Counted from the stretch's first letter, positions 62,396 to 63,867 are shown. The stretch is 64,000 nt of DNA from Escherichia coli (GCF_030013205.1 NZ_CP122648.1); one strand, 5' to 3'. Numbers and translations: made by a program. Notes: generated by a model not told the origin, from the letters alone.

Positions 62396-62614
62396 TCAAA
62401 GAGAGAGCGCCACCTGTCCTGATTTCATTGGATGCGGCTGAACCGGATTTGACTCTTTTGGCGTTGCAATCGAACGAACAAAAGTTTCATGGGTAACAAA
62501 AGTATGGCTGCAGTTAATGTTCTGGCACTGGTTGTAACGCTCTTTGGTCAATGAAGATACCTGAAAACTGCTGCGAGTATGGGCGGCACTTCCACACAGT
62601 GGGCAAATCATCAT
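62396..62614 (-). CDS. ogr: P2 Ogr-type zinc-finger late-gene activator (72 aa)
   Basis: MMICPLCGSAAHTRSSFQVSSLTKERYNQCQNINCSHTFVTHETFVRSI... compares with P2 Ogr MFHCPLCQHAAHARTSRYITDTTKERYHQCQNVNCSATF (CxxC...CxxxxC). I trimmed the start to the Met after the SD ggggaga. Confidence 0.9.
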   Translation of the reverse strand: MMICPLCGSAAHTRSSFQVSSLTKERYNQCQNINCSHTFVTHETFVRSIATPKESNPVQPHPMKSGQVALSL

Positions 62615-62704
62615 TTTTCGAGTTCTCCCCATTTTTGCTAAATTCACAATAATGATACCGCATTATTCCATTTTGCAAACTTAAAAGTTCTCCATTGCGA
62701 AGAA

Positions 62705-63778
62705 TCATTCCATTTCGAAATCATCAATCCTCACTTCAAGCTCCAGACTGGTCGTAAAACCGTTATCCGGGCTGACGGTATGAGTCAGAGTCGTAATGGT
62801 CCATTCCGCATCATCTATCGGTTGTTTAAAGCCACTAACTTTCACTGGCATTTCCGTGTAAAGATCTGCCCGCCCTTCCGCCAGTTGTAGCGAGAATGAC
62901 GCAACGCCGCGTTGCAGGCGTTCCCACTGCATTTTCGCTGCCCGTTCAGCGTTGCTCCGGTTGGCATAAGTGCGATTAAGTACCAGCACGTTTTCATCCG
63001 TACCCACCAGGTAATCGCCCTGCTTCGCTTCCGGCTCTTTCTTCTGCTTCTTAGTTCTGCGCTTACGCTTCACCGTGGTACTTTCTTTCTTCGCAGGTTC
63101 GCGGGTATGCAACCAGCTGGCAATTACGCCCGTGTAGGCTCCGCGATCTGCCAGGGTAAAGCGGTGACTGTCGCCGTCCTTGCGTGTGATAGTGATCACT
63201 GGCAGTGGTTTACCAGTGGCGTTTTTGCCCTGCCCCTGCCGGATGAATAACAGATTGCCATTTTTCACCGACGCGATGGCACCGTACTGTCGCGCCAGCC
63301 GCATCAGAAAACTGCCGTCACTCTCATTAGTCTGGTCTATATGCTCCACGGGCTTATCCGACAGGTCTTTACCCAGTGCCATCTTCAGCTTGTGCCGCGC
63401 GGCTATTTCCTTCACCACTTCCCCGACGGTGGTCTTGTGCCACGACTTTTCACGACGGGTATTCAGCGTTTCCCGAAAATCAGCACTTCGCGCCCGGATA
63501 GTCAGGCGGTCCGGTGCGCCAGTGTGTTCAATCTCGTCCACCGTGAATGCCCCTTTCGGGAAAAGCGGCTGCCCCTTCCAGCCCAGCGCCAGCGTAATGA
63601 CCGCACCACGGCGCGGCAGCACGATTTTTCCGTCGGCGTCGTCCAGCTCCAGATCAAGCTGGTCTGCGTCAAAGCCCCGGTTATCCGTCAGCGTCAGCCC
63701 CATCAGGCGGTTGTCCAGCACAGTGGTGATACCTTCGTTGACTTCAACAACGCGCACCCCGTGGTGAAAATCATTCAT
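62705..63778 (-). CDS. Chimeric ORF: the first ~18 aa of P2 tail sheath FI fused in frame to gpD lacking its first ~30 aa (357 aa)
   Basis: MNDFHHGVRVVEVNEGIT matches the P2 FI N-terminus (MSDYHHGVQVLEINEGTR). From ...LTLTDNRGFDADQLDLELDDADG... to the end it matches P2 gpD. FII, E/E', T and U are absent. Confidence 0.8.
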   Translation of the reverse strand: MNDFHHGVRVVEVNEGITTVLDNRLMGLTLTDNRGFDADQLDLELDDADGKIVLPRRGAVITLALGWKGQPLFPKGAFTVDEIEHTGAPDRLTIRARSADFRETLNTRREKSWHKTTVGEVVKEIAARHKLKMALGKDLSDKPVEHIDQTNESDGSFLMRLARQYGAIASVKNGNLLFIRQGQGKNATGKPLPVITITRKDGDSHRFTLADRGAYTGVIASWLHTREPAKKESTTVKRKRRTKKQKKEPEAKQGDYLVGTDENVLVLNRTYANRSNAERAAKMQWERLQRGVASFSLQLAEGRADLYTEMPVKVSGFKQPIDDAEWTITTLTHTVSPDNGFTTSLELEVRIDDFEME

Positions 63779-63806
63779 TTGTATACCCACCATAGCCAAG
63801 GAACAA

Positions 63807-63867
63807 CATATTCTCTATATTTTTTCAGTTAATAACTATTCGTGATTTATGTATAGCATCTGGTACA
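63807..63867 (-). promoter_or_regulatory. P2-type Ogr-dependent late promoter (PF-like)
   Basis: The dyad TGT-N12-ACA lies at 63850-63867 (tgtatagcatctggtaca). On the minus strand a TATAGA -10-like hexamer (63819-63814) lies about 39 nt from the dyad centre, which puts the dyad at roughly -50 to -55. Confidence 0.65.

Follow-up and report, generated by a model that had tools for sequence, protein, structure and literature searches.

In P2 and 186, the genes of the PF/F operon (P2) and the pJ/J operon (186) run in the order FI...D-ogr-att, downstream of a TGT-N12-ACA site located ~80 to 85 nt upstream of the FI start. This motif is the published consensus of the P2 late promoters PP, PO, PV, and PF (PMC3931495). 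According to the records of the two phages, ogr (B in 186) has its own sigma-70 promoter and, as the gene immediately preceding the terminator of the F/J operon, is also reached by read-through. Decayed forms have been described as well. Defective P2-like elements with a pseudogenised core and conserved cargo have been catalogued in bulk (PMC13586616), and the locI site of Escherichia coli K-12 is described as occupied by a P2 remnant in a passage of PMC3931495 that cites Barreiro and Haggard-Ljungquist (1992). This remnant is the cryptic prophage PR-X, a 629-bp element made up of an intact ogrK and of yegZ (a 3' D fragment of 219 nt) that lacks a late promoter.

We analyzed a stretch of 64,000 nucleotides from E. 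coli (GCF_030013205.1, NZ_CP122648.1; referred to here as the window), which ends in a prophage remnant (Table 1). Like P2 and 186, this remnant has the FI...D-ogr-att order and the TGT-N12-ACA site at a similar distance from FI; it differs from them in the loss of FII, E/E', T, U, 96% of FI, and codons 1 to 25 of D and in a promoter sequence that cannot be aligned with theirs. It shares with PR-X an intact ogr-family gene that has a 3' fragment of D beside it at the att-proximal end, and both elements sit at the 3' end of an sRNA gene (cyaR for PR-X, rybB here). In contrast to PR-X, the remnant (~11.8 kb) keeps PF, baseplate and tail-fibre genes, cargo, CI, and int, and what is left of D is almost the complete gene, joined in frame to the start of FI; the Ogr and OgrK proteins are 51% identical. 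PR-X is the closest precedent, and the element described here belongs to the same kind but is younger and larger. There is no essential difference from the catalogued defective P2-like prophages, in which mobility and morphogenesis genes are pseudogenised or deleted and intact accessory genes occupy variable loci, except that the decay is resolved here to single deletion alleles within a clone.

Table 1. Features of the rybB-proximal end of the remnant and of the FI-D interval. Positions are counted from the first nucleotide of the window; those marked L002 refer to the intact same-site prophage of E. coli ATCC 8739.
Feature	Position	Strand	Description
rybB sRNA gene	62240-62318	+	Rfam RF00110, 104 bits, full length; 3' end is the prophage attachment site
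att core, attL-side copy	62305-62331		GTGGGTTTTTTGTTGCCTAAAATTTAT; 27-nt repeat, 26/27 identical
ogr, late-gene activator	62396-62614	-	72 aa, C4 zinc finger, intact; Pfam Ogr_Delta PF04606, 6.7e-22
Candidate promoter of ogr	62652-62679	-	Sigma-70-like, TTTGCA-16-TATCAT; consensus scan, putative function
Chimeric ORF FI'::'D	62705-63778	-	357 aa; Pfam Phage_GPD PF05954, 5.7e-27; PHROG "tail protein"
D-derived part of the ORF	62705-63731	-	gpD residues 26-366 and stop codon
FI-derived part of the ORF	63732-63778	-	Start codon, first 16 codons + 2 nt of the tail-sheath gene
-10-like hexamer of presumed PF	63810-63815	-	GAGAAT, read from sequence; predicted start site near 63803
Dyad, presumed Ogr binding site of PF	63850-63867		TGT-N12-ACA, TGTACCAGATGCTATACA; position relative to FI start
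Acyltransferase (Acyl_transf_3) cargo gene, 5' end	63946-64000	+	Divergent; K_EC180 RefSeq annotation and Pfam listing
D, intact prophage	L002 20556-21656		
U, intact prophage	L002 21653-22138		
T, intact prophage	L002 22135-25212		
E', intact prophage	L002 25205-25324		
E, intact prophage	L002 25339-25641		
FII, intact prophage	L002 25696-26211		
FI, intact prophage	L002 26221-27393		
Window-type allele, deleted	L002 21583-27343		
ETEC6333-type allele, deleted	L002 21604-22371 and 22841-24188		
EC556-type allele, deleted	L002 21368-25212 and 25267-25786		
ETEC4068/4075-type allele, deleted	L002 20685-25264		129 nt of D left

The references for comparison were the intact same-site prophage of E. 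coli ATCC 8739 (L002), Klebsiella phage 4LV2017 (L003), and the sister strain ETEC6333 (L005). In the window, the host genes rimK, nfsA, ybjC, grxA, ybjM, and ybjL are followed by rybB, the last 14 nt of which are overlapped by the att core. A second copy of the core lies ~11.8 kb away, past the window end, beside int and rcdA; it corresponds to positions 17669 to 17695 of L005 and was seen in genomes matching the window exactly, and attR is annotated at the matching place in the 4LV2017 record. Because the att core is repeated beside an integrase gene and rcdA, we identify the element as a P2/186-like prophage integrated at the rybB 3' end; the window stops within it. Its affiliation with the P2-like phages (Peduoviridae) is given by the C4 zinc-finger activator Ogr, by gpD and the D-ogr-att order at one end, which agrees with the P2 and 186 records, by the duplicated att core, and by the integrase at the other end.

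The gene set of a viable prophage is lacking. The genes Q, P, O, N, M, L, X, A, and B and the lysis genes are absent, as are part of R and all of FII, E, T, and U, and the baseplate gene I is frameshifted. With its head, lysis, replication, and tail gene set incomplete, the element is a non-viable P2/186-like remnant of ~11.8 kb rather than an inducible prophage, and the region studied here is its rybB-proximal end. Head, lysis, and replication genes were removed by an R'::CII' fusion, to which K_EC180 adds a CI frameshift of its own that the other carriers do not have. We also considered an R-type tailocin and rejected this reading, given that sheath, tube, and tape measure are deleted and that I is frameshifted. 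Two cargo genes are present: the acyltransferase gene, which occupies the position of Z/fun in P2 and runs on past the window end, and an FRG-domain gene between S and V. In a search with the PADLOC defence models, only this FRG-domain gene was matched (candidate PDC-S15), with zero matches for the chimeric protein or Ogr. As targets of selection, the two cargo genes are more plausible than the chimera.

An earlier note on this DNA had described an intact ogr gene and an uninterrupted 357-aa ORF with its own Shine-Dalgarno sequence and late-promoter dyad, and ORF analysis, Pfam, and position comparison bore out this anatomy. The junction lies exactly at 63731/63732, and both of its flanks are 100% identical to ETEC6333. 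On the D side, window positions 62150 to 63731 are collinear with ybjL-rybB-ogr-D (98.9% identity to L002; 96.8% to L003), and the D-derived part has 98.9% identity with the D gene of ATCC 8739 and 100% identity with that of ETEC6333. On the FI side, positions 63732 to 63772 match the first codons of FI in the intact relatives compared, and the FI-derived part as a whole has 100% identity with the 5' end of FI in ETEC6333, where this gene is intact. Positions 63732 to 63778 represent FI nt 1 to 47 (i.e., FI nt 1 to 50 counted through the junction), and D resumes at nt 75, the third base of codon 25; the coding strand reads GTC AAC GAA GG/T ATC ACC ACT GTG, with the slash at the junction. The in-frame FI-D join proposed earlier was therefore confirmed, with two corrections. 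The FI share, estimated at ~18 codons, amounts to 16 codons and 2 nt; the overcount arose because I-T-T-V occurs in both FI (NEGTRSITTVS) and D (GRDITTVLD). The entry into gpD, placed at about residue 30, is at I26 in the alignment to the 366-aa D of ATCC 8739.

The DNA missing at the junction amounts to 5,761 bp relative to the intact phage and to 3,641 bp relative to the closest relatives, which already lack U and parts of T. The statement that the deletion removed FII, E/E', T, U, and most of FI is corrected in this respect. No microhomology was found at the exact breakpoint in the window. A nearby imperfect match of 10 of 12 nt (ATYACCACKGTG), which encodes ITTV in both proteins, is offset by 15 nt in FI; we rejected it as evidence of homologous recombination. 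At the protein level, the alignment of D with the R2-pyocin hub (6u5h_C) begins at D residue 15, whereas the D sequence of the chimera begins at residue 26. The conserved first strand (PAFSISIEGRD), which is aligned to the earliest ordered residues of this hub protein, is thus lost, and the chimera does not have the PxFxIxxxGxDIT strand that marks functional gpD/gp27-like hubs.

We searched 5,426 complete E. coli genomes for the junction with a 300-nt probe spanning it. It was present in seven, namely, K_EC180 (Korea) and six "ETEC" strains, all of them swine isolates with a 100% identical junction; over 1,851 nt, these seven carriers were identical. The exact 357-aa protein was found on 37 contigs of a collection of 15 billion proteins, with the same genomic context in 24 of the 24 contigs that were read from among the 37. 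Three further carrier loci from draft assemblies correspond to window positions 62319 to 64000 and are identical over all 1,682 nt. Ten more swine genomes share the identical PF, FI 5' end, and acyltransferase gene but have an annotated full-length sheath gene FI, and the PF intergenic sequence at 100% identity occurs in only 17 complete genomes, all from swine. The earlier note had reasoned that a junction conserved across other genomes would imply an old and maintained allele; what we found is a single swine clone. The same data uphold its other suggestion, a very recent deletion, as K_EC180 differs from ETEC6333, which lacks this deletion, by 2 mismatches and 2 gaps in 15.9 kb.

Of the 10 sister genomes, we inspected four (ETEC6333, EC556, ETEC4068, and ETEC4075). 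Outside the deletions, their loci are 99.95 to 100% identical to K_EC180. Within the FI-D interval, four states were observed, i.e., the window type and three others (Table 1), with six distinct junctions in all. Each junction shows 0 to 2 nt of microhomology, which points to illegitimate recombination as the probable mechanism. D was left as 816 or 129 nt in sister alleles, while ogr is intact and encodes the same protein in all four states. The frameshift in I is common to all states, and the R'::CII' fusion is common to all but EC556, which has an S/A deletion. The window-type deletion spans the region of both smaller ETEC6333 deletions and may have arisen from an ETEC6333-like or more intact ancestor. 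It is also the most often sampled allele (7 of the 17 complete genomes), a frequency that could reflect clonal success or sampling.

On the basis of these results, we consider it highly probable that the locus represents the neutral and very recent decay of a prophage remnant and not a preserved circuit. The remnant appears to be in the course of being taken apart by successive illegitimate deletions. In a single swine E. coli clone, one recent deletion would have taken out all sequence between FI codon 17 and D codon 25 (3.6 kb when measured against the nearest relatives; 5.8 kb against the intact phage), and the two stubs would have been joined in frame by chance, for which the prior is 1 in 3, leaving the ORF in the native frame of D. 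The fusion ORF would thereby have inherited the PF late promoter and the ribosome-binding site of FI, directly upstream of an untouched ogr. The chimera and ogr are intact because there has been too little time for mutations, not because they are maintained: at the divergence seen between carriers and noncarriers (~2 SNPs per 16 kb), the 1.3 kb made up of the two would be expected to have collected ~0.16 substitutions, so that their integrity carries no information on selection. Their differences from intact prophages reflect phage divergence that preceded the decay. The survival of ogr and of a variable 3' piece of D in every allele is explained by their terminal position next to the att site.

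As it stands, the locus is of little importance. It is a well-resolved example of the whittling of a P2-type prophage, with four alleles and six junctions in one near-clonal swine lineage, and it teaches that, for an event no more than a few SNPs old, an unbroken fusion ORF with an intact regulator next to it does not count as evidence of function. The natural near-isogenic strains, which differ in having the full F-operon stub, the chimera, or hardly any D, would be usable for determining the cost of, or the protection given by, Ogr-controlled remnants.

The earlier note had proposed retention by selection as the alternative to recency, for instance of a gpD-derived product that interferes with incoming P2-like phages. 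In its most explicit form, this reading makes FI'::'D a selected gain of function, e.g., a dominant-negative hub that the Ogr protein of an incoming P2-like phage induces and that poisons tail assembly, with superinfection interference as the outcome. The uninterrupted ORF with its retained Ogr-type promoter, SD, and start codon would suit such a role, as would the presence of most of the hub fold (D residues 26 to 366), and antiphage functions are common in prophage remnants (PMC13586616). The distribution of alleles speaks against it. The junction is clone restricted and shows zero variation, which leaves no signal of constraint, and three other deletion patterns occur in near-identical sisters, with D cut to 816 or 129 nt in sister alleles. 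Moreover, the chimera has no PADLOC match, has lost the first conserved hub strand, and is in frame in a way that is expected one time in three. We therefore regard a selected chimera as extremely improbable. Given the loss of this strand and of the sheath, tube, tape-measure, and U partners, the chimera is most likely an inert pseudogene product; against the neutral explanation, a function of the chimera in this clone may be conceived of.

The positions of the deletions may be less evenly spread than neutral decay would lead one to expect. Among strains with at least 99.95% identity, the 6.8-kb F-operon interval contains all six junctions, and the neighboring 7.5 kb (acyltransferase gene to S) is free of them; in E', the endpoints of two independent junctions are no more than 2 nt apart (L002 25264 and 25266). 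For uniformly placed deletions, the chance of such a pattern is ~(6.8/14.3)^6, or ~0.01, a rough figure that ignores size constraints. This clustering hints at some departure from purely uniform, neutral decay and could be due to a sampling effect, purifying selection on the cargo stretch, a local hotspot, or selection against F-operon expression. Under the last of these, leaky production of sheath, tube, and tape measure under the control of Ogr would be costly in a remnant unable to complete virions, removal of the body of the F operon would be favored, and the chimera would be one outcome among several. However, other large deletions fall outside the F operon (R'::CII' and the S/A deletion in EC556), purifying selection on the cargo (acyltransferase and FRG/PDC-S15) in the kept stretch could produce the same asymmetry, and the pattern comes from 17 genomes only. 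Selection for the deletions themselves is accordingly an unlikely account.

The late promoter presumed to drive the chimera was assessed by position. The center of the dyad lies 80.5 nt upstream of the chimera ATG (i.e., the FI' start), compared with 83 nt upstream of FI for the annotated PF activator site in the P2 record; perfect TGT-N12-ACA dyads are located at -85.5 and -83.5 in the ATCC 8739 and 4LV2017 phages, and in the 186 record a B-protein site is annotated upstream of pJ. Beyond the dyad and its position, which are all that they have in common, the intergenic sequence does not align with P2, 186, or ATCC 8739. By itself the motif is not significant, with 9 copies in the window versus ~15 expected by chance, and it is solely the conserved position that argues for the dyad as a putative PF site. 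With the GAGAAT hexamer as the -10, the dyad would lie near -55 relative to the start, which is predicted from the -55 rule for Ogr sites; with this spacing, a -10, and a poor -35, the sequence resembles a P2 PF-type promoter. If made, Ogr would bind the dyad at ~-55 and recruit RNA polymerase, giving a predicted transcript of ~1.45 kb that covers the chimera and then, by read-through, ogr, in a positive loop as in P2. A terminator scan of positions 62150 to 64000 gave zero calls, and thus none between the chimera and ogr; it also missed the rybB terminator, and the loop limit of the tool makes the scan uninformative.

The Ogr protein retains all four cysteines of the zinc finger (C-X2-C-X22-C-X4-C), with the conserved motif CPLC...CQNINC. 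Its identity is 51% with P2 Ogr, 54% with 186 B, and 100% with the homologue in 4LV2017, and its accession is the same as that of the intact ATCC 8739 prophage. At least 1,000 contigs carry the identical protein, among them that of the intact ATCC 8739 prophage, and ogr-D adjoins rybB in 880 of the 5,426 complete E. coli genomes. An inverted repeat (AATAATG-N6-CATTATT; positions 62648 to 62667), detected by palindrome search, overlaps the -10 of the candidate ogr promoter. Phage 186 has ATTCAC-N5-GTGAAT sites at pB, which is repressed by CI. The CI of the remnant is of the 186 type, is intact in most carriers, and is only 31% identical to 186 CI; a comparison of the region upstream of ogr with the immunity region gave no convincing shared operator.

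These observations bear on the possibility that ogr itself is kept by selection, through trans-activation of a P4-like satellite elsewhere, of incoming ogr-defective phages, or of the remaining V-G operon and cargo, with the chimera as a passenger. Trans-activation of P4 by Ogr is known (PMC7552001), and ogr is intact in all four deletion alleles. In K-12, an intact ogrK likewise persists beside the D fragment of PR-X, and this ogrK is reportedly functional. On the other hand, a gene of 219 bp at the very end of the element is expected to survive in the short term without selection, the ogr homologue of 186-type phages is repressed by CI, which most carriers have intact, and the only satellite in the window is not of the P4 type, has no delta/psu/sid-type content, and is absent from the carrier K_EC180. 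Selective maintenance of ogr thus seems unlikely. A combined reading, in which Ogr is made at a low level, as reported for K-12 ogrK, and PF, FI'::'D, and ogr form a compact positive-feedback unit, would have the F-operon deletions reflect selection on this unit, either through loss of the costly sheath and tube or, for the window allele, through a truncated hub that is induced by the Ogr of an infecting phage and hinders baseplate assembly; we consider this very unlikely.

The satellite in question is an island of 10.6 kb at positions 14624 to 25211, 37 kb from the remnant, which in comparison with K_EC180 is inserted between clpS/yljB and cspD. Its genes code for an integrase, a D5-type primase, an SSB, a fusion of ClpP protease and major capsid protein, and a DUF1441 protein. 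The Psu-Delta-Sid operon defines P4-like satellites, which rely on the capsids of a helper, whereas islands with a capsid gene of their own belong to PICI/cfPICI (PMC10085698). No Ogr/Delta homologue was found in the island or elsewhere in the window beyond ogr. Because it encodes its own protease-capsid fusion and has no Ogr/Delta homologue, the island is, by gene content, PICI-like and not P4-like. It has a single TGT-N12-ACA dyad, at chance level and inside the primase gene, and thus presents no evident target for Ogr trans-activation. The suggestion of a P4-type satellite as a trans-activation target of ogr was rejected on these grounds and on the absence of the island from K_EC180, where the junction is present. 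The island occupies the same site in 52 complete genomes, with no junction carriers among the best 30 of these 52, and its co-occurrence with the junction in the window strain looks incidental.

A separate in-frame fusion, E'::'D (P0008; 297 aa), was found in another lineage among the 40 members that we read of the same protein cluster. Since an unrelated fusion was encountered among only 40 members, in-frame fusions of this sort are recurrent by-products that gene callers preferentially report.

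All six junctions of this lineage fall within the 6.8-kb interval of the F operon (the late tail genes FI to D), and none falls within the adjacent 7.5 kb. Either a hotspot for deletions or selection against the F operon may lie behind this clustering. The ETEC4068-type and EC556-type deletion alleles, carried by sister swine strains (loci L012 and L013), are independent of each other. Their endpoints lie no more than 2 nt apart inside E' (positions 25264 to 25267 of L002, the intact prophage at the same site in E. coli ATCC 8739). Another in-frame fusion to D was observed in P0008, a 297-aa protein of the same protein cluster as the FI'::'D chimera, in which the first ~20 residues of GpE' are joined to D from approximately residue 90. 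P0008 is present on four contigs of another E. coli lineage, and this fusion is independent of the FI'::'D chimera.

The remnant continues past the window end on locus record L001, where a second fusion-type deletion left the 3' stub of R, a tail gene, fused to the 5' stub of a CII-like regulator gene and eliminated every gene for the head, lysis, and replication. The arrangement at this place differs in EC556, in which S lies directly next to a gene for a replication endonuclease. The P2 variable loci in the remnant are occupied by cargo genes, among them an FRG-domain protein gene and an acyltransferase gene; the S/V locus of ATCC 8739 holds other cargo (i.e., a Sll1717-family P-loop ATPase gene) in place of the FRG-domain gene.

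Coordinates and locations of features in the window and in the L001 continuation of the prophage remnant
Feature	Coordinates	Location	Match
Imperfect tandem repeats	window ~1559-1795	inside ftsK	
PICI-like island (putative)	window 14624-25211	between clpS/yljB and cspD	
Stretch of ~2.6 kb	window ~43440-46060	between ybjQ and ybjP	
rybB sRNA gene with prophage attachment site	window 62240-62331	attachment site at the rybB 3' end	
Direct CGCCAT repeats	window 62373-62389 (minus strand)	between ogr and att core	
Perfect inverted repeat	window 62648-62667	candidate ogr promoter	
Acyl_transf_3 acyltransferase gene	window 63946-64000, on to L001 14852	Z/fun position, between G and FI	
FRG-domain protein gene	L001 19504-20439, past window end	between S and V	PADLOC candidate defence system PDC-S15, 8.5e-32
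R/CII-like fusion	L001 20896-21466		

The P2/186-like prophage occupies an attachment site at the 3' end of rybB, for which the phage brought a near-identical replacement end. Among 5,426 complete E. coli genomes, ogr-D was located immediately beside rybB in 880. A similar arrangement is found in K-12, where the P2 remnant PR-X adjoins another sRNA gene, cyaR. The two CGCCAT repeats, 11 nt apart, are similar to YAYCGCCAYTY, the sequence that the record of phage 186 annotates as the Int arm-type consensus. The inverted repeat (AATAATG-N6-CATTATT) and the −10 hexamer of the candidate ogr promoter overlap; because 186 pB is CI-repressed, the repeat may by analogy be an operator. Comparison with the immunity region for a counterpart of this repeat revealed no matching site.

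Elsewhere in the window, a 10.6-kb island is absent from K_EC180, an otherwise near-identical swine strain with the same FI-D junction. The island encodes an integrase, DUF4222, a D5-type primase, an SSB, a ClpP-protease/major-capsid fusion, and DUF1441; neither TerL nor an ORF of portal size was seen in it. On the basis of this gene content, the island resembles a PICI-like satellite that encodes its own capsid rather than a satellite of the P4 type. The copy in strain KGu016, from river water, is 100% identical, and identity in sheep strains is 99.9%.

The ybjQ-ybjP interval spans ~2.6 kb, compared with 126 bp in ATCC 8739, and includes a truncated pentapeptide-repeat gene. The repeats inside ftsK (copies 88 to 92% identical, offset by 39 nt and multiples thereof) presumably correspond to the repetitive linker region of this gene.
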